Source: Candidatus Gastranaerophilales bacterium (lineage in GTDB: Bacteria; Cyanobacteriota; Vampirovibrionia; Gastranaerophilales; Gastranaerophilaceae). Taken from it: 23,413 bases of DNA. Location: contig CALVEX010000159.1 of NCBI GenBank assembly GCA_944326655.1, positions 1-23,413 on the forward strand. Direction: 5' to 3'. Below the pieces are notes generated by a model. That model saw only the letters and a program-made list of their open reading frames with translations. It had not been told where the DNA came from and made no database searches. Positions 113-23,330 of the stretch are shown piece by piece (within the stretch, counting starts at the first letter, position 1; every line of letters begins with the position of its first letter). The position numbers and the translations under genes were made by a program.

Positions 113-3100
113 TTATTTTAACTGATATAAAGTACATGTCTTTGTAAATTTATCTTTATTTGTCCAGCCGCCGTACAGATCCATATAAATTTCATCACAA
201 TCTATATCGCCGAGAAAAGAAACTTGTCTTATTTCTTGTTGTAAATCAGAAATTGGAACATCATTATAAGACCCGCTCATATAAACCGGAGTATTTTCAA
301 CACCGGTAATTTCTTGAGAAACTTTTGCCGCATAATCAGCCATCGCAGATCTAACCTGTACTCCTGTCGCATTTGAAGGTTTATATTTGTTATTAATTTC
401 TATATTATCAATTATAAAAGCAGGTTTTCCATTGTCATCTTTGATAAAATAACACAGAGCATTTCCTATAGTTTTGCCGGAAGTATTATCAACAAGCTCT
501 ATCATATTATAGGCAGTATCCATCACAAAGTGAGGCATTGCAGATCCATTTCCGCCTCCCATACCTATACAACAGGTCGAGTAATTTCCCTGGAAAATAT
601 CTTTTTGCGGATTTCTGTCCCACATTTTTATTGTCAAATCAAGTTTTCTTTCGGATTTTCCTTCTTGTACTGACGAAATATCATCTAATCTTTGATTAAG
701 ATGCTCTAAAATAGTAAGTGTATTTCGAGGTGTCTGGGCTCTTTTAGGATCGGGATTTGCGGCATTTCCCTGTGCGCGTTTCCATACCTGAGCAAGCTGT
801 CCCTGTTCAGAAGTATCTGATAACATTTCAATAAGTTCTTTTAATTTATTTTTATTAGATAAATATTCTTTAGGTATAATAAACTCATCTCCTTTAATGA
901 ATTTAGGAAATTGTTTTTTCAAAAATCCTTTAACAGGAGTTTGCATTAACATATTTATATCTTCCGATACCTGAGCTGCTATTTGTTCTATATGTTCCGC
1001 ATTTTTATCTTTTGATACAAAATGAATTTCATGTTCTTTTGAGGGGTGTAACCATTTTTCATAATTTAAACCTGATGTCTCAAACATATTACGTGTGTTT
1101 TCATTTGCTATGCCATATATATTAGATGTATTGTGGATAAATTGATTAAAATCAGGTTCTAAAGAACCGGCTTTCATGATATCATTGAAAGATAAATCAT
1201 TGCCTGAATTTATTTCTTTTGAAAGCAAATGAATATAATTCATATCCCAAGACAATAATTTATCTTTGGGAATAGATGCGATTTGAGTATCAGTCAAACC
1301 TGAATTTTTCATTATTTGTTGGCATAAATCTGCATTCAACTGCCCTACATCAACTTTTCCCTGATCTATCATAGATTGTATGCCATCAAATGACATATTG
1401 TTTGCTTTATATGCAGTGATTAAATCTATAAATTCAATTTTTTGTGTAGGCATAAACGGTTTGTTGTCTGTATTGCAGGATTCCGACAGATTTTTTAACA
1501 AAGACATTTCATCCGGGGAAAAATCGCGTAAAATATCTATATACTCATCTGCATCATCAAATCTCATTCTCAATAAATGATTTACTGCTTCTTTGTCAAA
1601 AATTTCAGAAGCTGCCATTAAACAGCAATAATTACTATCAACAAATTCTTCTACTTCATCTCTTGCAAGTTCCGGGGTTTCAAATTCGCCATTGACATAC
1701 CATTCAGGATTTTTTAGCATTTTTTGTTTTAGAGCCTTTACCTTTGAATCCAGTTCTACTAAATCCTTATTTTTTAGCATTTTTAAAACATTATCATTAC
1801 GCGTCCAACAAATATCATCAATAAGAGGTTGAATACGCTCATTCGGGAAATCTGGATTGCGGCATAATTCTCTTACAATGTCTATAATATCCTTGCCTTT
1901 ATTTATGTGGCGCAATATACCTTCTATGTGTTCTTTCGGGAAATCTGGATTGTTGCACAATTCTCTTGCTAACTCTATATTGTCTTTATTTGTGCAACCC
2001 AATAATATACCTTCTATGTGTTCATTCGGGAAATCTGGATTGTTGCATAATTCTCTTGCAAGATTTATATTGTCTTTATTTGTGTAAGCCAATATACCTC
2101 TTATTTGCTTTTTCGGGAAATCTGGATTGTTGCACAATTCTCTTGCAAGGTCAATAATATCCTTGTCTTCATATATGTCGAACATTATACCTTTTATGTC
2201 CTCTTTCGGGAAGTCAGGATTGTTACACATTTTTCTTGCAATGTCTATATTATCTTTATCTGTGAATAACAATATACCACGTATGCGCTCTTTCGAGAAA
2301 TCGCCATTGTACATATCTTTTACAAGATCACGACGCTGATATGCATAATCCATATTATTTTTATCTGAGTAGAATAATATATCGCGCATGTATTCATTTG
2401 GAAAATCCGGATCATTGTATAATTCTCTTGCAAACTCTATGTTATCTTTATTTATGCAACCCAATATATCTTTTATTTGCTTTTTCGGAAAATCCGGATT
2501 GTTACACATTTTTCTTGCAATGTCTATAACATCCTTATCTCTACCTGCTAATAACAATATATCTTTTATTTGCTTTTTCGGGAAATCTGGATTGTTACAC
2601 ATTTCTCTTGCAAACTCTATATTATCCTTATGTGTGTAACCCAATATACCTTTTATGTGTTCATTCGGGAAATCTGGATTGTTACAAATTTCTCTTGCAA
2701 ACTCTATGTTATCCTTATGTGTGCAACCCAATATACCTTTTATGTGTTCTTTCGGGAAATCTGGATTGTTGCACAATTCTCTTGCAAGATCTATATTACC
2801 CTTATTTGTGAAGTCCAAAATATTATTAGCATACTCTCCGCCAATTCCTCTAGCCTTAAGTGTTTCAGCAAGCTCATCTTTCATCTTTGCAAATGTTTCA
2901 TCGTCTATCTCGATTTTTGCTGTTTCCGGTGCAGAAAGCTGTGCATGCTCGGGCACGTCTAATTCTTTGCCCTGCCGCGTAATAGGTGTCCCTTCATTCA
3001 TATCCGTTTTTATTTGTTCTCGTATAACTTCCTGTGTTTCCTGAGTTCTTCCCTGTGAAGCACCTGAAGATGTTTCCAATGATTGTTGCACTCTATGATT

Positions 3101-4978
3101 TTCTTCCGATTGTTTAGCAAAGATATTTGCCTGCGCTTGCTGAGGCGTTTCAGGATGGAAGGTCAGAGCTTCGGGAGCTCCTTCCACTTTGTAGCCCTTT
3201 GTTCCAAGTAACAATACGCTCAGTGCAAGTTCATTATCATTCTTTGCTGTTACTATTACTTCTCCGTTTCTAGTTAAGGTATAGGTCCCGTTTTCTTGTT
3301 TTTCTACATTTACGTTATTTAGTTTTGCACCCTTATGTATTGCAGAACCTGCAAACATCATTCCGTAGTTCATAAGTCCGTTTTGTGACAGGGATTCTTG
3401 TATTGTCATATCGCTTGTTAATCTGTCGAATATAACATCTGCTGTTGTTTCTGTCCCTGTTCCGATGATTTTGGGGATTATACTTTTAAATATTTGAGGA
3501 TTTTTTGACAGGATTTTTGCTACGCTGTCTCCTACAGGGCCTGAGACATATGCACCGAAGGCTCCGTACATCATGCCGTTTTTCAATTCTTCCCAGGCTT
3601 CTTGACCGGTTTGTTCTGTTATTCCTTTTTTGCTTGTTGCATCGCTTACTATTGTCACTGCAGGGTTAAATGCTGCAGTTGCTGTAGTTGCTATGCCTTT
3701 TACAGCGGCATTACTTACCATGGCACCTGCCTTTGTACCGAATTTTGCACTTGCTAGCTGCATTGCTTTGGAACCCAAGTTTTGCATGGCTGTTGAGCCC
3801 ATGGCAAAGTATGATGCTGCTATTGTTGTACCAATTTCGATTACGGCAGCCTGCGTCTTCATGTTAGAAATATATTCATTAATTATTTCTTCCGAGTTAT
3901 AATTTCCCATTGCCTGCTTGTATGCAGACTTGTATTCTTGCTCCAGTGTATTTTTGTCTAAAGAATGTATCTGAGAGTCATATTCATTTTTAGCATCTGT
4001 GAGGAAGCTTTTTAGTTCCTGAACGAATTTCTTATCATCATTTTGAGCAATACTATTTAATTGGGATACGTATTGTTGAGCAAGCTCTCTGTTGTTTCCG
4101 ACATGGGGTAAGATGTGGAGCATTGCTGCTTTTCTGACATTAACGGGGGCTGCATTATCTATGTTCGATAGAGTATTTGAAATATTATCTGATAGGTTTT
4201 GATATGCGTTTAGAGTTTGGAGGTTTGTATCTGCTTTCTGAAGATTTTGAAATGCCTGTTCATTATAATCTATACCATAGAGTTCTTTGAAATTTTTATT
4301 AAATTCTTCTGGATTGTTTGTCGTATTCTTAAGTCTGATAATCCCGCCTATTTCATTGCTGATTGCCTCTCCATTTTCCCAGACTGTAACAAAGTCGTTA
4401 CGGCCTGTTATTTTATCCCAGGTATAGTTGCCTATTGATTGAAGCCCCTGTTGAACGGCATCAAATGAAACTTTACCTATGCCGTTGTAGTAGTTTGTAA
4501 GGTTATCTCCGGCATTCCCTGCTTGTTGGAATAATTTATCAGCAGCGAAAGCTCTTGTTTGTTGGGATTGTTGTTCTAATAATTGTTCCTGGGAGAGATT
4601 TTGTTTTTGTTCAGTTTTTGAAGCGGAAATGGGAGATGGCTGTTGTTGAGTTTGATGATTATTTTGTTCTAGTGTGAGAGTAATATCATCCAGATATGTG
4701 CCGTTGTCATAAGTATCATATTTCCCAAAACTGAATCCATTGCCAAAGATAGAAGTAGAATTGAATCTGGAGTTGTATGAGTCCTGCCCTTCTTTTGTGC
4801 CAAAAGCCCATTCTTCGAATTCATCGCGGGACAGAATTCCGTTTGCAAGCATTTGTGCGGCAACATCATATTTTGACATATCTTTTTTTGATATATATTC
4901 ATTGCTTCTGAGTTGATCCAGGTGTGCCATAGCATAATCATCAATTTTTTTAGATATTGAATCGTTTGTTCCTGACAT
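113..4978 (-). CDS. Giant (1621 aa) multi-domain protein. The N-terminal region is Q/N-rich and polar. A Gly/Ala-rich hydrophobic segment follows (aa ~380-520). The central part has about 11-12 tandem 30-aa repeats (NIEFARELCNNPDFPKEHIKGILGCTHKD). The C-terminal ~250 aa domain is Cys-containing (QGNYSTCCIGMGGGNGSAMPHF...). No signal peptide. Candidate secreted effector, toxin or adhesin-like protein.
   Basis: Single uninterrupted 4866-nt ORF on the minus strand. ATG at 4978 is preceded by GAAGGAAG, with in-frame stops upstream. Plus-strand ORFs inside it are short, repeat-derived artefacts. Repeat periodicity is visible at both protein and nucleotide level. Confidence 0.8.
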   Translation of the reverse strand: MSGTNDSISKKIDDYAMAHLDQLRSNEYISKKDMSKYDVAAQMLANGILSRDEFEEWAFGTKEGQDSYNSRFNSTSIFGNGFSFGKYDTYDNGTYLDDITLTLEQNNHQTQQQPSPISASKTEQKQNLSQEQLLEQQSQQTRAFAADKLFQQAGNAGDNLTNYYNGIGKVSFDAVQQGLQSIGNYTWDKITGRNDFVTVWENGEAISNEIGGIIRLKNTTNNPEEFNKNFKELYGIDYNEQAFQNLQKADTNLQTLNAYQNLSDNISNTLSNIDNAAPVNVRKAAMLHILPHVGNNRELAQQYVSQLNSIAQNDDKKFVQELKSFLTDAKNEYDSQIHSLDKNTLEQEYKSAYKQAMGNYNSEEIINEYISNMKTQAAVIEIGTTIAASYFAMGSTAMQNLGSKAMQLASAKFGTKAGAMVSNAAVKGIATTATAAFNPAVTIVSDATSKKGITEQTGQEAWEELKNGMMYGAFGAYVSGPVGDSVAKILSKNPQIFKSIIPKIIGTGTETTADVIFDRLTSDMTIQESLSQNGLMNYGMMFAGSAIHKGAKLNNVNVEKQENGTYTLTRNGEVIVTAKNDNELALSVLLLGTKGYKVEGAPEALTFHPETPQQAQANIFAKQSEENHRVQQSLETSSGASQGRTQETQEVIREQIKTDMNEGTPITRQGKELDVPEHAQLSAPETAKIEIDDETFAKMKDELAETLKARGIGGEYANNILDFTNKGNIDLARELCNNPDFPKEHIKGILGCTHKDNIEFAREICNNPDFPNEHIKGILGYTHKDNIEFAREMCNNPDFPKKQIKDILLLAGRDKDVIDIARKMCNNPDFPKKQIKDILGCINKDNIEFARELYNDPDFPNEYMRDILFYSDKNNMDYAYQRRDLVKDMYNGDFSKERIRGILLFTDKDNIDIARKMCNNPDFPKEDIKGIMFDIYEDKDIIDLARELCNNPDFPKKQIRGILAYTNKDNINLARELCNNPDFPNEHIEGILLGCTNKDNIELARELCNNPDFPKEHIEGILRHINKGKDIIDIVRELCRNPDFPNERIQPLIDDICWTRNDNVLKMLKNKDLVELDSKVKALKQKMLKNPEWYVNGEFETPELARDEVEEFVDSNYCCLMAASEIFDKEAVNHLLRMRFDDADEYIDILRDFSPDEMSLLKNLSESCNTDNKPFMPTQKIEFIDLITAYKANNMSFDGIQSMIDQGKVDVGQLNADLCQQIMKNSGLTDTQIASIPKDKLLSWDMNYIHLLSKEINSGNDLSFNDIMKAGSLEPDFNQFIHNTSNIYGIANENTRNMFETSGLNYEKWLHPSKEHEIHFVSKDKNAEHIEQIAAQVSEDINMLMQTPVKGFLKKQFPKFIKGDEFIIPKEYLSNKNKLKELIEMLSDTSEQGQLAQVWKRAQGNAANPDPKRAQTPRNTLTILEHLNQRLDDISSVQEGKSERKLDLTIKMWDRNPQKDIFQGNYSTCCIGMGGGNGSAMPHFVMDTAYNMIELVDNTSGKTIGNALCYFIKDDNGKPAFIIDNIEINNKYKPSNATGVQVRSAMADYAAKVSQEITGVENTPVYMSGSYNDVPISDLQQEIRQVSFLGDIDCDEIYMDLYGGWTNKDKFTKTCTLYQLK
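1840..2840 (-). repeat. Tandem ~90-bp (30-codon) repeat array inside the giant CDS, about 11-12 units with high unit-to-unit nucleotide identity.
   Basis: The string ttcgggaaatctggattgtt[g/a]cacaattctcttgcaa recurs at ~1843, 1936, 2026, 2113, 2206, 2293, 2400, 2485, 2576, 2666 and 2753 (period 87-93 bp). The translated unit is ...ARELCNNPDFPKEHIKGILGCTHKDNIEF... Confidence 0.85.
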
Positions 4979-5222
4979 TCGATACTTCCTTCTACTTTTT
5001 TGTGTAAGACTTAGAATGTTTGCAATAAATTTATCGGCACTTTTTCTTTGTTCTTTAACTCCTCGACTCTCCTAATGTAATGCTATCAGCCGGAATGACT
5101 GTCTATTTGCTATTTTTACGTGTTTGTATAAATTTCGTTATACTTCTTTAGATTTGTAATTTTATTTATAATCCAAGCAATGTGTTGAACATTTATAATT
5201 CATAGTGATAGTAGTTTATTGA

Positions 5223-5233
5223 GGGGGGGGGGG
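5223..5233. repeat. Homopolymeric G11 tract (C11 on the sense strand of the giant gene), ~245 nt upstream of its ATG. Candidate slipped-strand phase-variation tract.
   Basis: Printed sequence ttgag + 11 g + atttc. The sense-strand context AAGAGGA..TTTTGTT..ATGG..(23 nt)..C11 resembles the uORF/poly-C module of the pilin cassettes (AAGAGGAG TTTTGTT ATGG ..28 nt.. C10). Confidence 0.6.
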
Positions 5234-9941: not shown

Positions 9942-11177
9942 TTAAAAAGGGTAATCATCTTTTATCTGCCATCCGTCACGCATAATTTTTGCAGCGCATG
10001 TGTATCCGCCGGATACTGCTTTAGCGTTGCAAGCCCAGGATGCTGTACTATTAATAGTGTTATCAGGCCAATCGTATCCGTAAGGTTTTAACATTTTGTC
10101 AGCCAGAATAAAGAAAAACAAATCCTTTCCTGCAACATTTGGTCCTTTATCAGAACCATTTATATCAATAAAAAATGCTGCATTATTTATTGATGTTGAA
10201 TAGAGTCCAATACAGACACCGTCTACGGTTTTAAAAGATGCAGTCCCCGGATTTATGGGGGAGGAGAGCCAGACTCCTGTCAACCATTCATACTGTGTAT
10301 TTTCATAAAACATTTTCCCGTTATAACACATATTTTCTGCATAGTCTCCGGGCGGATATGTTTTATCAATTTTAAATTCCGGTGCCAAATAATTATTAAC
10401 TATTTTTTCGGGGGAATTCCAATCCTGCCAGTTTTCCATTTCTCCATGTTTAATTTCTGCCATTATAATGGCCTGATTTGTCAGTGTGTAAGCTCGTTTT
10501 AATTTTGTAACAGTTTCATCCTTTTGATGTTTTGTAATTAATGTTGGTAAAGTCATCGCCGCAACCACGCCGATTATGCCGAGGGTGATTAGGACTTCTG
10601 CGAGTGTAAATGCGGCTCGACGTTGACCGTTCAGCAGGACTACGCGCGTAGCGCCATCTGCGATGGTAAAGGTAGCAAGTTTTTTCTTAAGTGAAGAAGT
10701 TAATAAGTCAATAGGTGAATAAGTTCGTTTCAGGGAATTGATATAGTCCCCTCTCCCCGGCGAATTGACCTTCGCGCGGGAGAGTACTCTTATACTCTTC
10801 CCTCTCCCCCTGCGGGAGAGGGTTAGGGTGAGGGGTGTTTGTTTGAAACCCATCCTAACCTTCCCTAATAAGGGAAGGAATTCTATGTCCCCTCCCTTGA
10901 GGGGAGGGGAATACAAGGGGAGGGTGATGCTCTTAAGTGAATAAGTTAATAGGTCAATAAGTGAATAAGTTCTTATCGGCAGCGTACCGCTGCAAAAGAT
11001 TACCGAGGAAATTTCACTATTATGCGATTGCGACGGTCGTTTCACACGCTGGCAATGACACGTATCTTGTGAGCTTTGCTCACAGATACCGGCATACCTT
11101 ATTACCCTCCTATCTTCCGATCTTCCATTAATGGCCTGCCCTCCTGCCTTCTTGAACTCTTGCCTTCTGTTTGTCAC
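9942..11177 (-). CDS. Prepilin-type (type IV pilin-like / pseudopilin-like) protein, paralog 1. The class-III signal motif AAFTLAEVLITLGIIGVVAAMTLP lies at codon ~189 of an open frame that starts at GTG 11177. The C-terminal ~220 aa globular part has the DINGSDKGPNVAGKDLFFF motif. The true 5' end is unresolved (see findings).
   Basis: Canonical FTLxE + hydrophobic helix. There is no in-frame ATG/GTG/TTG within 60 codons upstream of the motif. The frame stays open for ~188 codons back to a GTG whose UG overlaps the UGA stop of an RBS-equipped upstream ORF. Paralogous to 14013..15209. Confidence 0.6.
   Translation of the reverse strand: MTNRRQEFKKAGGQAINGRSEDRRVIRYAGICEQSSQDTCHCQRVKRPSQSHNSEISSVIFCSGTLPIRTYSLIDLLTYSLKSITLPLYSPPLKGGDIEFLPLLGKVRMGFKQTPLTLTLSRRGRGKSIRVLSRAKVNSPGRGDYINSLKRTYSPIDLLTSSLKKKLATFTIADGATRVVLLNGQRRAAFTLAEVLITLGIIGVVAAMTLPTLITKHQKDETVTKLKRAYTLTNQAIIMAEIKHGEMENWQDWNSPEKIVNNYLAPEFKIDKTYPPGDYAENMCYNGKMFYENTQYEWLTGVWLSSPINPGTASFKTVDGVCIGLYSTSINNAAFFIDINGSDKGPNVAGKDLFFFILADKMLKPYGYDWPDNTINSTASWACNAKAVSGGYTCAAKIMRDGWQIKDDYPF
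10688..11170 (-). repeat. Conserved hairpin-rich upstream cassette of pilin paralog 1 (shared with paralog 2 and partly with 23001..23330). It contains four polypyrimidine-loop-polypurine hairpins (10749-10785, 10800-10822, 10859-10878, 10889-10908) bracketed by a ~45-bp direct repeat (10690-10735 and 10925-10972, cttaagtgaataagttaataggtcaataagtgaataagttc). It also contains the palindrome TGTGAGCTTTGCTCACA (11068-11084).
   Basis: Direct sequence comparison with 14750-15205 (modules are nearly identical, with mosaic indels). Confidence 0.75.
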
Positions 11178-11221
11178 GCTTTCGGGGGGGGGGCGATTCT
11201 CAGCTTCTTATCTTTAACCAT
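11174..11221 (-). CDS. Upstream ORF of pilin paralog 1 encoding MVKDKKLRIAPPPKA (15 codons). It contains the C10 tract (encoding APPP). Its UGA stop overlaps the GUG start of the long pilin frame (gcGUGAca).
   Basis: AAGAGGAG-N7-ATG on the minus strand. The 10-G tract is confirmed independently by the plus-strand track ORF 11076..11297 (..CHAFGGGAILSF..). One extra C fuses this ATG in frame with the 9942..11177 frame. Confidence 0.5.
   Translation of the reverse strand: MVKDKKLRIAPPPKA
11184..11193. repeat. Homopolymeric G10 (C10 on the sense strand) inside the upstream ORF of pilin paralog 1. Candidate phase-variation tract.
   Basis: ttc + 10 g + cgatt, read directly from the sequence. Confidence 0.8.
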
Positions 11222-14012: not shown

Positions 14013-15209
14013 TTACGGATTAATACATTGCCAGTAAGTTTTTGATGTATCTGTTTCACATGTGTTTAAAATTGCCCATTTTGCACATGTGAAACCCTGG
14101 TAATGTTCTTTCTCAGATGTAAAACAGCCCCCAAAGCGTGTATATGGTACTACGTTGTTATTTTTGTCTATGTTGAATGAAAATAAATCGTGTCCCAGAC
14201 GGTTAGGTCCTTTGGCCGGGCCGTTGATATCAATGTGATACCCTCTCGCTCCCCAAGGACTCATAAATATAAGAATACCACTATTAGTTAAAATAGATTT
14301 TTGAGTAAGTGAGTCCGCGTCTATATGTGCATATGTCCCTTTAACAAAAGAGTCATAACTTTTTTCCCTGCGCCCTGTGCAGTCTAAGTAATATTTTGTG
14401 CACAGTTGAGCATTTGGTATATACTTTATAAGTTTGTCTAAATGATTTGAATATGCTGTTCTCATATCAGATTCAGAATTTAAATCTTCATACAGCATCG
14501 GATAATCATTCTGCATAAGCAGATGAGCATTTTGAATTAATGAATAAGCTTTTTTGAACTGTGTTTCCAAAACATGCCGTTTGTAATTTGTAATAACCAC
14601 AGGTAAAGTCATCGCCGCAACCACTCCGATAATTCCGAGGGTGATGAGGACCTCTGCCAATGTAAACGCGGCCTGACGTTGACCATTCGGCATGGCTACG
14701 CGCGTAGCGCACTCAGCCAAAGTGAATGCAGGTATCAACTGAACGCGTTCCATGTCCCCTCCCTTGAGGGGAGGGGAATTCAAGGGGAGGGTGATGCTCT
14801 TAAGTGAATAAGTTAATAAGTCAATAGGTGAATAAGTTCGTTTCGAGAAGGTGTTCTGCCTCTCTTTGGAAAACTCTTGTTCAAATATTTTAAAGTTTAA
14901 TAAATATTGTGGCAGAGGGCGAAAAAGAGGGTTGGGGTGAGGTTCTATTATGTTCTGCGATTGCGACGGTCGTTCCACTCCCTCGCAATGACATGTATTT
15001 TGTGAGCTTTGCTCACCGATTTCAGCATACCCTCCTACCTTCCTATCTTCCAATCTTCCTGAATCAGCCCTCTCTCTAACTATCTCCCGAGGAGAGAAAA
15101 CGCGTTTCAACTTCCTTATACAGGAAAGGAAGTTATTTTTACGCGGGCTCTGCCCGCCGATAATAGCCTGACCTCCTGCCTTCTTGCCCTCCTGACTTCT
15201 TTTTGTCAC
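14013..15209 (-). CDS. Prepilin-type (type IV pilin-like) protein, paralog 2. MPNGQRQAAFTLAEVLITLGIIGVVAAMTLP lies at codon 173, with an in-frame ATG at 14693 just before the motif. The C-terminal part has the DINGPAKGPNRLGHDLFSF motif. The frame is open back to a GTG near 15209 that is coupled to an upstream ORF, as in paralog 1.
   Basis: Same architecture as 9942..11177. The stop codon abuts the clpB stop (convergent, zero spacer). A partial duplicate FTLAE motif (IPAFTLAECATRVAMPNGQRQAAFTLAEV) is present. Confidence 0.65.
   Translation of the reverse strand: MTKRSQEGKKAGGQAIIGGQSPRKNNFLSCIRKLKRVFSPREIVRERADSGRLEDRKVGGYAEIGEQSSQNTCHCEGVERPSQSQNIIEPHPNPLFRPLPQYLLNFKIFEQEFSKERQNTFSKRTYSPIDLLTYSLKSITLPLNSPPLKGGDMERVQLIPAFTLAECATRVAMPNGQRQAAFTLAEVLITLGIIGVVAAMTLPVVITNYKRHVLETQFKKAYSLIQNAHLLMQNDYPMLYEDLNSESDMRTAYSNHLDKLIKYIPNAQLCTKYYLDCTGRREKSYDSFVKGTYAHIDADSLTQKSILTNSGILIFMSPWGARGYHIDINGPAKGPNRLGHDLFSFNIDKNNNVVPYTRFGGCFTSEKEHYQGFTCAKWAILNTCETDTSKTYWQCINP
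14750..15205 (-). repeat. Conserved hairpin-rich upstream cassette of pilin paralog 2. It contains hairpin 14766-14785 (cccctccc-ttga-ggggaggg), hairpins 15083-15095 and 15111-15132, the gaataagt module 14797-14850 and the palindrome TGTGAGCTTTGCTCAC (15001-15016).
   Basis: Module-by-module similarity to 10688-11170. An additional ~140-nt segment is absent from paralog 1. Confidence 0.75.
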
Positions 15210-15253
15210 GCTTTCGGGGGGGGGGCGATTCTCAGCTTCTTATCTTTTTTCAT
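15206..15253 (-). CDS. Upstream ORF of pilin paralog 2 (MKKDKKLRIAPPPKA if the tract is C10). It has the same RBS, poly-C tract and UGA/GUG overlap as paralog 1.
   Basis: AAAAGGAG-N7-ATG on the minus strand. The 3' coordinate depends on the tract length (9 as I read the printed line; 10 implied by the frame of the supplied ORF 14013..15209). Confidence 0.4.
   Translation of the reverse strand: MKKDKKLRIAPPPKA
15217..15225. repeat. Homopolymeric G tract (9-10 nt) inside the upstream ORF of pilin paralog 2.
   Basis: I read gctttc + 9 g + cgatt. The adjacent block reads cctgcccttcttg. The ORF-track translation MTKRSQEGKKAGG requires cctgccttcttg instead, so the G run is most probably 10 and one of my two run counts is off by one. 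Confidence 0.6.
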
Positions 15254-19158: not shown

Positions 19159-19231
19159 GCCGATGTAGCTCAGTTGGTAGAGCAACTCATTCGTAATGAG
19201 TAGGTCAAGGGTTCGAGTCCCTTTATCGGCT
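19159..19231 (+). tRNA. tRNA-Thr (anticodon CGT), 73 nt, CCA not encoded.
   Basis: Manual cloverleaf. Acceptor gccgatg/tatcggc (one G-U pair). D arm tagctcagttggtagagc. Anticodon stem actca/tgagt with loop ttCGTaa. T arm aaggg-ttcgagt-ccctt. Discriminator t. Confidence 0.85.
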
Positions 19232-19458: not shown

Positions 19459-19551
19459 ATGGATTGGCCGGGTCGGAATTAAAAACCTTACCGGCCGGAT
19501 TGACGGTGATAGGTTCGCCGGATCCTAAATACAAATTAAGGAGAATTTAAA
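19459..19551 (+). promoter_or_regulatory. GC-rich structured 5' leader of metK. Hairpin GGCCGG-loop-CCGGCC (19465-19495) whose loop (aaCCTTAcc) is complementary to the SD region (atTAAGGag). Candidate pseudoknot-type SAM-responsive element of unassigned class.
   Basis: Stem and loop/SD complementarity read directly. The leader does not match the SAM-I core (no GAGGGA...GGCAACC...). Confidence 0.3.
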
Positions 19552-20826
19552 ATGACACCAAGAAACTTTTTATTCACTTCCGAATCAGTTACGGAAGGAC
19601 ACCCCGACAAAGTCTGCGATCAGATTTCAGACGCAATTTTGGATGAGTTTTTGACAAAATACCCTCAGGCGCGTGTAGCAGCTGAAACTACTGTTACCAC
19701 TGGTATGGCGCTTGTCTGCGGGGAAATTACTGCTGATTGTTATGTTGATATTCCTTCAGTTGTAAGAAATACGATTAAAAATATCGGCTACAACGGAACA
19801 CAAGGCGGCGGTTTTGATTACAAAACCTGTGCCGTTTTGACAAGTATTGATGAACAGTCTTGCGACATTGCGGGCGGTGTAAACAAAGCTTTTGAAACAA
19901 GAAATAACAACGCTGATACTTCAACTTCTGAAACTGAAAATATCGGCGCAGGCGATCAGGGAATTATGTTTGGTTACGCCTGTAACGAAACACCTGAATT
20001 AATGCCTTTGCCTATCAGTTTGGCTCATAAATTATCATATAGATTAGCTCAGGTAAGAAAACAGGGAATTTTAAACTACCTCAGACCGGATGGCAAATCT
20101 CAGGTTACTGTTGAATATGTTGACGGAAAACCTTCTAGAATTCATACAATTCTTATTTCAACACAACATGATCCTGAAATTAACGGTGAATGTGATAACA
20201 GCAAAGTTCAGGAAATTATTAAAAGAGATATTACCGCATACGTAATTGATGAGGTTTTTGCGCACGAAACTATTAAAATTGATAGTGAAACAAAAATTCT
20301 TGTAAACCCGTCAGGAAGATTCGTTGTAGGCGGGCCTCAAGGGGATGCCGGATTGACCGGACGTAAAATTATTGTTGATACTTACGGTGGTTATTCTCGC
20401 CACGGCGGCGGTGCTTTTTCGGGAAAAGATCCTACAAAAGTTGACAGATCTGCTGCTTATGCCGCAAGATGGGTTGCTAAAAATGTTGTAGCTTCAGGTT
20501 TAGCAGAAAAATGCGAAATCGAACTTGCTTATGCAATCGGTGTTGCAGAACCTGTTTCAATCTTGGTTGATACTTTTGGCACAGGTAAAATTTCCGATGA
20601 TGAAATATCTGCTTTAGTATCTAAAAACTTTGATTTAAGACCTGCATCAATTATTAATCAGTTTGACCTTCGCGGGCTGCCTGCTAAAAACGGCGGTAAA
20701 TTCTATCAATTACTTGCCGCATACGGTCATATGGGAAGAACTGATATTGATGTTCCGTGGGAAAGAACAGATAAGGCCGACGCTTTGAAATCTCAGGCTT
20801 GCGGCTGCTGTTCCTGCTCAAAATAA
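19552..20826 (+). CDS. metK: S-adenosylmethionine synthetase with an unusual Cys-rich C-terminal tail (...[11 protein letters not shown]).
   Basis: Conserved MetK blocks ([51 protein letters not shown]). RBS AAGGAGAATTTAAA-ATG. Confidence 0.97.
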
Positions 20827-20889: not shown

Positions 20890-21075
20890 GACCGTCACCC
20901 TAAATTTGTTTTAGGGTATGAATTTTTTTTGATTTCTATCGCAGTTTACAAAAGAACCGTAATACTCTCATTCCGAATGTCGGATTGACCTTCGTGTTTC
21001 GGAATCTCTATATTGTTAGACCCTGAAACAAGTTCAGGGTGACATTCAAGATGTTGTTAGTGTAAACTGCGATAT
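20890..21075 (+). repeat. Structured intergenic repeat element. Hairpins accctaaa-tttgtt-tttagggt (20896-20917) and accctgaa-acaa-ttcagggt (21020-21040). A 10-bp inverted repeat gcagtttaca/tgtaaactgc (20941-50 and 21061-70) encloses a nested palindrome attccgaa...ttcggaat and a sigma70-like promoter TTGACC-N18-TATATT (20985-21014) oriented toward the gamma-CA gene.
   Basis: Read directly. A 45-nt core (gtaatacNNtcattcNNNNNtcggattgNNcttNgtgtttcNgaa) recurs at 23003-23050. Shorter pieces recur upstream of the giant gene (5083-5110, minus strand), at 10761-10775 and at 19494-19506. Confidence 0.55.
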
Positions 21076-21152
21076 AAGCCCCGAATTTTTTACTGGCAAA
21101 ATTTTTTATGTTTGGTTTTTTATAATAAAGTATTTAATAAGGAGAAAATTTT

Positions 21153-21788
21153 ATGTTACCTGTTTTACCGCAGATTGCCCCTAAAAATGTAATGCCAAAT
21201 CCTGTAACGAGTTTTACCCCGAACAGATATATGCCTTTGTTGATGCCGAATGATGCTATTCATCCGCAGGCAAGTGTAATTGGAGATGTTATAATCGGAC
21301 AGGATGTTAATATTGCGCCTTTTGCTTCTGTCAGAGGAGATGAAGGCACCCCCATTTATATAGGAGCCGGTTCAAATGTTCAGGACGGTGTTGTTATCCA
21401 CGGACTTAAAAACGGACGTGTAAAGCATGACGGGCAGGAATATTCGGTATATGTAGGAAAAGATGTCAGCCTTGCGCATCAATCACAGGTTCATGGCCCT
21501 GCAAAAATCGGTGATAATGTATTTGTCGGTATGCAGTCATTTGTTTATAAATCGGAAATAGGTAACAATGTTGTAATTGAACCTGCCGCGAAAGTTATAG
21601 GTGTAAAAGTCGCTGATAACAGGTATGTTCCGGCAGGAGAAGTTATAAAGACCCAGGAACAGGCAGATAAACTCCCTGAAATTACTCCTGAATACGTAAA
21701 CAAAGATATGAATCATGAAGTTGTTGAGGTTAATAAAGAACTTGCGTATTCCTATCCTGCAAATTATTATATGGCAAGTTTCGCTTAA
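21153..21788 (+). CDS. Gamma-class carbonic anhydrase-like / left-handed beta-helix (hexapeptide-repeat) protein with a Pro-rich ~35-aa N-terminal extension.
   Basis: Hexapeptide repeats (ASVIGDVIIGQDVNIAPFASVRGDEG...IGAGSNVQDGVVIHG) typical of the CamH/YrdA/PaaY family. RBS AAGGAGAAAATTTT-ATG. Confidence 0.8.
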   Translation: MLPVLPQIAPKNVMPNPVTSFTPNRYMPLLMPNDAIHPQASVIGDVIIGQDVNIAPFASVRGDEGTPIYIGAGSNVQDGVVIHGLKNGRVKHDGQEYSVYVGKDVSLAHQSQVHGPAKIGDNVFVGMQSFVYKSEIGNNVVIEPAAKVIGVKVADNRYVPAGEVIKTQEQADKLPEITPEYVNKDMNHEVVEVNKELAYSYPANYYMASFA

Positions 21789-22935: not shown

Positions 22936-23000
22936 TTATCTCTCCTAACCAGATTAACTTTATCACAAAAATGGAATTTATATAGCGGTTTGCACGAAAT

Positions 23001-23330
23001 ATGTGTAATACAGTCATTCTGTACCTCGGATTGTGCTTTGTGTTTCAGAAGTTAGTTGCAAGAAGTTCGGAAGGCAGGAAGGCAAGAGGTCAAGCCGTTA
23101 TCGGCGGGCAAGGCCCTCGTAATGACAATTACAAGTTTAACTTTTGCAGCGGTACGCTGCCTATACGAACTTCTCGTCCTAACGTCTTTACGTCTTATCG
23201 TCTGAAACAATACGAACCTCACCCCAGCCTCTCCTTGTAAAGGAGAGGGGACGATATCAGCTCGCCGAAACGAACTTATTCACCTAAACTCGTTTCACTC
23301 TTCACTCATCACAGTTCACTTAATATTATT
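23001..23330 (+). repeat. Third, degraded copy of the pilin upstream cassette (plus-strand orientation). It lacks the promoter, upstream ORF and poly-C module, has a frame-breaking stop, and retains one hairpin (cctctcctt-gtaa-aaggagagg, 23228-23249) and a diverged gaataagt module. A new gene starts at ~23405 (AGAGGG..ATGAAAA).
   Basis: Same-frame peptide similarity (VARSSEGRKARGQAVIGGQ...FCSGTLPIRT against paralogs 1 and 2). Nucleotide similarity to 11120-11170 and 15120-15200, including synonymous third-position differences. Confidence 0.6.

Follow-up and report, generated by a model that had tools for sequence, protein, structure and literature searches.

A probable IS1595-type miniature inverted-repeat transposable element between metK and a gamma-carbonic-anhydrase-like gene in Candidatus Gastranaerophilales

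Does a conspicuously structured stretch of intergenic DNA serve the genes on either side of it, or has it simply landed between them? The question is raised by a contig of a Candidatus Gastranaerophilales bacterium (CALVEX010000159.1), from which we analyzed one window, the whole stretch of 23,413 nt. In this window, metK (19552-20826; its product has three S-AdoMet synthetase domains) is followed by a gene for a hexapeptide-repeat, gamma-carbonic-anhydrase-like (gamma-CA-like) protein at 21153-21788, and the 326-nt spacer between them contains a stretch that folds far below its shuffled versions (z = -6.3 on the + strand, -5.9 on the - strand). An initial annotation had described hairpins of the type accct[ag]aa, a 10-bp inverted repeat, a palindrome, and a promoter-like TTGACC-N18-TATATT there, and had offered two readings, a MITE-like element that delivers a promoter or the binding platform of a shared regulator. 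All of these motifs are present at the locus, and its inverted repeats and hairpins are genuine, well beyond what chance would give. We propose that positions 20929-21082 are very probably a non-autonomous, 154-bp miniature inverted-repeat transposable element (MITE) of IS1595 type, inserted between metK and the gamma-CA-like gene. The element belongs to a familiar class of mobile DNA and is not dedicated to regulation, and its strong predicted structure is the sum of the MITE termini and two internal hairpins. The near-equal fold strength of both strands is the pattern expected of DNA inverted repeats.

Termini, target-site duplication and empty sites

The 10-bp inverted repeat of the initial annotation is real, although its true arms are longer (17 nt at 94%, 20934-50 / 21061-77) and the true ends of the MITE lie 8-12 nt further out, the right arm continuing to a 23-nt terminus at 21060-21082. 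Alignment of the window with four copies from the metagenome-assembled genome (MAG) SI.A70.metabat-bins.5 gives a unit that runs from GGGACTTATATCGCAGTTTACAC to GTGTAAACTGCGATATAAGTCCC, with a terminal inverted repeat (TIR) of ~23 bp (consensus GGGACTTATATCGCAGTTTACAC) and the layout terminus, spacer, hairpin (+), hairpin (-), spacer, terminus. The bounds of the window MITE (20929-21082, + strand) were taken from alignment with the copies in loci L022, L026, L038, and L017 and from a table of TIRs and target-site duplications. Its right TIR (21060-21082, - strand; GTGTAAACTGCGATATAAGCCCC, reverse complement GGGGCTTATATCGCAGTTTACAC) fits the 23-nt family consensus; in the left TIR (20929-20951, + strand), the inner 15 nt (TATCGCAGTTTACA-) are intact and the outer 8 nt are degenerate. 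The element is non-coding, and no open reading frame (ORF) of 60 aa or more overlaps it.

A 9-nt direct repeat, GAATTTTTT, borders both ends, at 20920-20928 and at 21083-21091, and forms the left and right copies of a target-site duplication, GAATTTTT(T). Such a duplication had been suggested as a check around the 10-bp repeats; it exists, and it abuts both ends of the MITE outside those repeats. Relatives located via the gamma-CA-like protein allow the metK/gamma-CA spacers to be compared, and the element is absent from the spacers of four of them: L070 (protein 95% identical, spacer 96 nt), L039 (94%, 191 nt), L042 (89%, 113 nt), and L045 (89%, 118 nt). Removing 20929-21090, that is, the MITE and one copy of the duplication, makes the window colinear with L039, whose junction reads ...GGGGCT GAATTTTT GTTTTTTACTAGCAAAA..., with a single GAATTTTT at the insertion point. 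The same insertion is found in L001, a near-identical strain contig, and contigs nearly identical to the window occur in gut metagenome assemblies. A recent insertion into this spacer is the best explanation. In the same comparison, the spacers of L042 and L045 lack the metK terminator hairpin found in the window, L039, and L070, so that metK and the gamma-CA-like gene may be co-transcribed in these two relatives.

The same termini delimit a much larger element that encodes a transposase. A metagenome scan with the 18-nt inner terminus yielded nine real stretches, about 13 of the 22 retrieved being random matches that were set aside. One of them, at 1762-10188 of L048 (8,427 bp), is bounded by termini in inverted orientation, which the right terminus of the window MITE matches, and by a perfect 8-bp duplication, ATAAAAAA. 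One of its products is a protein of 315 aa with the domain PF12762 DDE_Tnp_IS1595 (E = 8e-34) that scores 150 bits against NCBIfam NF033547 (IS1595 family transposase; cutoff 75); a domain search detected no N-terminal Zn_Tnp_IS1595 domain in this protein. Its passenger genes encode an HpaII endonuclease, a C5 methylase, Vsr, a DUF2130 protein, and a helix-turn-helix (HTH) protein. A Gastranaerophilales MAG (L034) also has the left end of this element with its DUF2130 gene; there, the ORF beside the solo terminus, at first expected to be the transposase, is the DUF2130 passenger gene instead. Members of IS1595 are usually bordered by 8-bp duplications, and the termini of the related eukaryotic Merlin elements begin with GG (PMC8101967).

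In MAG SI.A70.metabat-bins.5, four copies that keep both the termini and the internal layout are found in unrelated flanks, and several human-gut metagenome contigs hold further ones. A sister subfamily, whose termini are related to these, is present in at least 8 copies in MAG BRZ_AE__bin22, where a strict search for inverted termini gave only one end and alignment shows a diverged right end, GGGACTTATATAGCAAATTCCAC. A terminus scan of viral contigs gave 0 matches. The table of TIRs and duplications has 12 TIR-bounded entries, namely L001 (the window's own insertion), the 8.4-kb element of L048, and ten further MITEs, among which L050 3721 and L067 seem to represent a single insertion. The 8-bp duplication is perfect for the 8.4-kb element and for four distinct MITEs (L038, two elements in L050, and L059, with L067 as a duplicate), and it matches at 7 of 8 positions in L026, L056, and L063. 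Insertion targets are AT-rich in every entry, and the ten other MITEs sit in unrelated flanks in gut MAGs and metagenomes.

From these comparisons, a history of the locus can be proposed. The MITE would be a 154-bp non-coding derivative, or a parasite, of an IS1595-family DDE transposon. A transposase of this family, supplied in trans, would recognize the ~23-bp termini and make a staggered 8-bp cut in AT-rich DNA, and that cut would have given rise to the flanking GAATTTTT duplication; we infer mobilization in trans from the termini that the MITE has in common with the transposase-encoding element. The landing site would have been a T-tract just after an older hairpin (H1, below), downstream of the metK terminator and upstream of the proximal signals of the gamma-CA-like gene. 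The cargo would be a tail-to-tail doublet of hairpins resembling repetitive extragenic palindromes (REPs): the + strand carries the long form, which has an additional inner stem and a TTGACC loop, and the - strand carries the short form. The window MITE is probably immobile now because the outer 8 nt of its left terminus have decayed, and its effect on the neighboring genes would seem to be mostly neutral.

The hairpin family in the interior of the element

The initial annotation had two hairpins flanking the inverted repeat. Both exist, and they are inverted copies of each other (24 nt, 88%), but they do not flank it symmetrically: H1 lies outside the outer repeat and H2 inside. H1 (20894-20919, + strand, GTCACCCTAAAT-TT-GTTTTAGGGTAT; arms ACCCTAAA/TTTAGGGT at 20897-20917) is a degenerate short-form REP-like hairpin outside the MITE; it scored terminator-like in a consensus scan and was not detected at E<=1 by R1, the covariance model described below. 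The MITE-less relative L039 carries a related hairpin module at the same position, and H1 is therefore older than the MITE insertion. H2 (21017-21044, - strand, TGTCACCCTGAAC-TT-GTTTCAGGGTCTA on that strand; arms ACCCTGAA/TTCAGGGT at 21020-21040) is a short form found by R1 with 27.6 bits (E = 6e-5). Its partner inside the MITE is the long form at 20966-21008 (+ strand; R1 64.6 bits, E = 5.5e-16), which corresponds to the 45-nt core of the initial annotation. In the long form, an outer stem of 8-9 bp, ATTCCGAA/TTCGGAAT, is combined with an inner stem of 4 bp, CGGA/TTCG, and a TTGACC hexaloop; the outer stem is the palindrome ATTCCGAA-N20-TTCGGAAT at 20970-21005.

These hairpins belong to a family that extends well beyond the MITE. 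A degenerate 25-nt pattern made from three variant copies and scanned against one genome per species matched 35 stretches, of which 31 have the whole conserved core; the other four (Leptospira, Geobacteraceae, Fimbriiglobus, and Brevibacillus) are random matches and were set aside. Most of the core-bearing stretches come from MAGs of Candidatus Gastranaerophilales, which NCBI taxonomy places in the phylum Candidatus Melainabacteria (Cyanobacteriota/Melainabacteria group), and the rest come from gut MAGs. Without gaps, 34 long-form copies align to TGTCATTCYGAACGTCGGATTGACCTCCGTGTTTCRGAATCTC, with an outer stem of 8-9 bp, an inner stem of 4 bp, a TTGACC hexaloop, and 95.7% of cells paired. A covariation analysis of the core had been suggested, and two stem pairs do covary across the 34 copies: pair 15/42 (UA 16, CG 14, UG 2) and pair 23/34 (GC 24, AU 6, GU 3), these being the two pairs with both columns free in a search pattern that fixes many columns of the set so gathered. 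The observed covariation score was reached by 0 of 500 shuffles. The structure that covaries is that of a DNA repeat widespread in Candidatus Gastranaerophilales, and the interior of the MITE consists of two inverted copies of it.

The covariance model R1, built on the long-form alignment, gave 72 hits in 266 kb. In the same loci, it also finds ~35 short forms, 28 nt long and without the inner stem-loop, H2 among them, and forms with 43-55-nt inserts in the loop. Stem covariation is plentiful in the short forms, whose flanks (TGTCA on the 5' side, TCT(C) on the 3' side) are fixed, and tail-to-tail doublets of hairpins are frequent. Of 35 long-form copies, ~28 have the TTGACC loop. On the TGTCA strand, G-U cells number 24 vs 9 A-C cells, a weak hint that selection may be strand-specific.

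A further observation concerns the loop. Between TGTCA and TCT, it hosts differing inserts of ~43-55 nt that themselves form hairpins, for example, at L037 4891-4956, L045 12383-12464, and L063 about 4470-4550, and in L004/L028/L034. Either the loop is a hot spot for insertion, or the arms of the stem are the ends of a tiny element.

Weighing the alternatives

Several points weigh against an IS1595-type MITE. In its outer 8 nt, the left terminus agrees with the right one at no more than 3 of 8 positions, the 8-mers next to the element match at 6 of 8 if its ends are taken as strictly symmetric, and a perfect duplication requires a 1-nt offset inside a T8 run. The MITEs in L022 and L045 show no 8-bp duplication (3/8), and tblastn found no transposase with these termini in the window, in 9 kb more of the strain (L001), or in any other locus except L048. 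In addition, no recognizable IS1595-type terminus accompanies 17 of 32 long forms or many of the short forms, and one terminus-less doublet, GCCATTTTGTC...GACAAAATGGC, is 100% identical over ~140 nt at three unrelated sites in two MAGs (L009 about 4158-4300, L015 as the reverse complement, and L032). Together with the G-U excess, these copies suggest that the hairpins may lead a REP-like life of their own, and the cargo of the MITE may have its own means of spreading. Could the hairpins themselves be what moved? The inverted pair of a long and a short form might be a REPIN, a doublet of REPs moved by an IS200-like, HUH transposase of the REP-associated tyrosine transposase (RAYT) type, and the outer repeat would then be incidental. 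This would accommodate the terminus-less copies and the G-U excess, the covarying stems (pairs 15/42 and 23/34), the flanks TGTCA and TCT kept in short and long forms alike, and the frequency of tail-to-tail doublets. However, it is not the hairpins that delimit the unit inserted here but the IS1595-type termini and an 8-bp duplication, and transposition of the RAYT/IS200 type is not known to make a duplication. REPs carry a GTAG/GTGG tetranucleotide 5' of the palindrome, and it is absent here, its place being taken by the flanks TGTCA and TCT(C). A tblastn search of 611 kb of loci with approximate IS200 TnpA and E. coli RAYT queries gave nothing significant, a weak test on a small sample. We consider it very unlikely that a REPIN accounts for this insertion. 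A wider proposal is that the hairpin is an independent, Melainabacteria-wide REP/REPIN-like system, which would spread by itself, offer its loop as a preferred site for nested inserts (2, 17, or ~43-55 nt), be captured repeatedly by IS1595-type MITEs, and present in its TTGACC loop a possible portable -35 box or protein-binding site. This proposal seems to us rather unlikely.

Two other explanations give the element a task at the gamma-CA-like gene. MITEs that carry promoters are represented by the Correia elements of Neisseria, and the relevant role of the MITE might be to deliver a sigma-70 promoter, the predicted TTGACC-N18-TATATT at 20985-21014 (+ strand), with a start near 21021-21024. 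The motif has 10 of 12 consensus matches, is aimed at a gene 146 nt downstream, and is the only canonical -35/-10 pair that a simple scan finds upstream of it in the window, the other + strand match spanning H2 and the right terminus; the same kind of scan found no canonical pair in the MITE-less spacer of L070. Its -35 is the loop of the long hairpin, and the presence of TTGACC in the loop of most long forms also speaks for this role. Its -10, however, lies between the two hairpins, where it is kept within the subfamily only in window/L001, L022, and L026. A good -10 at 16-19 nt follows in only 6 of 35 long forms, the window and the same locus in L001 among them; at this position L038 and L017, which belong to the same subfamily, read TGTGTT and TCTGCT. 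Nor is there a bias in placement (17 facing a gene start vs 10 facing a gene end, with the L022 copy of the MITE facing the 3' end of a gene), and the region holds 2 promoter-like matches vs an expectation of 2.1 from shuffles. The initial annotation had gone further and placed a promoter-bearing repeat upstream of at least three genes; we find two copies in the window, of which the second has TTGTGC and TAGTTG, with no usable -10. The four close MITE-less relatives, moreover, retain the gene-proximal region (21092-21152, + strand, outside the MITE) with TATAAT at 21121-21126 and a Shine-Dalgarno (SD) sequence AAGGAG at 21139-21144. This block, conserved in L039, L042, L045, and L070, probably holds the native expression signals; a simple scan found no canonical -35/-10 pair within it or, as said, in the L070 spacer, so the argument for a native promoter is one of conservation. 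Delivery of a promoter by the MITE is, in our judgment, unlikely. A structured cis-regulatory RNA (a riboswitch, a leader, or a small RNA), or the operator of a shared regulator, would explain the strong predicted fold (z = -6.3), the covariation of the inner hairpin, and the change C21021T in L001, which preserves a G-U pair on the + strand. The opposite strand, however, folds equally well (z = -5.9), as DNA inverted repeats would; the MITE unit sits beside unrelated genes in both orientations; and in Rfam, the structured element matched no family at the gathering threshold, while relaxing E to 10 brought up only sub-threshold noise, a tRNA at 19159-19231 being the only real match in the window. 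Conservation already speaks against this explanation, since four relatives whose protein is 89-95% identical have no such element in the orthologous spacer, and by the same token, the binding platform of the initial annotation finds no support. We regard regulation of this kind as extremely improbable. The IS1595-type MITE, by comparison, accounts jointly for what was observed, namely the termini and their recurrence in a transposase-encoding element, the duplication, the empty sites, and the dispersal, and the MITE-like reading of the initial annotation is borne out to that extent.

A second copy, other repeats and comparison with known systems

The window holds one more copy of the element, at 22973-23054 (+ strand), which is decayed and consists of a left TIR (22973-22995, GGAATTTATATAGCGGTTTGCAC), a spacer, and a long-form hairpin (23012-23054; R1 44.9 bits). 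The core had been matched to 23003-23050; this second copy is real, with the position corrected to 23005-23051, where the 47-nt core recurs once in the window with 36 of 47 identical, the best of 30 simulated sequences reaching 28. Two further partial matches, at 5083-5110 (- strand) and 19494-19506, turned out to be 9-11-nt matches that are not above chance, and R1 detects neither. Gapped homology extends over ~75 nt (20932-21009 vs 22976-23050; blastn E = 9e-9) and so includes the left arm of the outer repeat. The copy directly adjoins the start of a YibE/F gene, and its right half has been replaced by other mosaic repeats. At exactly the same YibE/F junction, the relative L045 has a complete MITE of 230 bp, which possesses both TIRs and differs in its interior, so the copy in the window is an older, shared insertion whose right half was overwritten. 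The window and L001, otherwise 100% identical, differ by ~20% here (window 22984-23260 vs L001 3211-3500), which suggests recombination or gene conversion among dispersed repeats.

Other repeats were seen in the window. Small modules are common to the leaders of pilin-like genes (10700-11130 and 14750-15140) and to the spacer after the YibE/F gene (23060-23290); they include CCCTCCCCTCAAGGGAGGGGA, GTCATTGCGAG...TCGCAATC, and direct repeats of the TTATTCAC type. The pilin-like ORFs at 9942-11177 and 14013-15209 have an N_methyl motif at residue ~180-190, and their leaders, ~500 nt long, are built of mosaic repeats. Each leader is preceded by the start of a short ORF that has a good SD sequence and reads into a homopolymer of 10 nt (11184-11193 and 15216-15225; on the coding strand C10, on the + strand G10). 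Slippage by +/-1 would shift the frame relative to the long ORF, and these tracts are therefore candidates for phase variation. The observation also covers about 5217-5228 (G12) and L047 2950-3260. A 1621-aa ORF at 113-4978 (- strand) contains tandem repeats of 87-93 nt (29-31 aa) at 1837-2820.

Explaining such a conspicuous intergenic element as mobile DNA averts its annotation as a riboswitch, small RNA, or operator in MAGs of Gastranaerophilales. From the literature searched, this is apparently the first described link between a MITE family and an IS1595-family transposon in this uncultured gut lineage, and the transposon carries a restriction-modification system. Both the MITE and the hairpin families should be useful markers of variation between strains, and they probably cause assembly breaks and local recombination in these MAGs.

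How does the element compare with known systems? The hairpins resemble the REPs of proteobacteria, their bacterial interspersed mosaic elements (BIMEs), and REPINs in being short imperfect palindromes with conserved flanks, covarying stems, and inverted pairs, in forming mosaics with other small repeats, and in lying mostly between genes. They differ by their TGTCA/TCT flanks in place of GTAG, by the inserts of 2, 17, and ~43-55 nt in their loops, and by riding inside a DDE-type MITE; no RAYT gene turned up in the weak tblastn search of 611 kb of loci. With the IS1595 family, the L048 element shares a transposase of that family, an 8-bp duplication, termini beginning GG(G), and passenger genes, the last a described trait of some IS1595 subgroups. 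The window element, unlike IS1595 insertion sequences, is 154 bp only and is without a transposase. This brings it close to the bacterial MITEs, such as the Correia elements of Neisseria, ERIC, RUP, and the cyanobacterial Nezha. Like these, it is short, non-coding, intergenic, TIR-bounded, and flanked by target-site duplications, and also like them, it has AT-rich targets, a stable fold, many copies, and, as in some of them, promoter-like motifs. Correia elements duplicate TA; the window element is set apart by its termini, by its 8-bp duplication, and by an interior made of a separate, clade-wide hairpin repeat.

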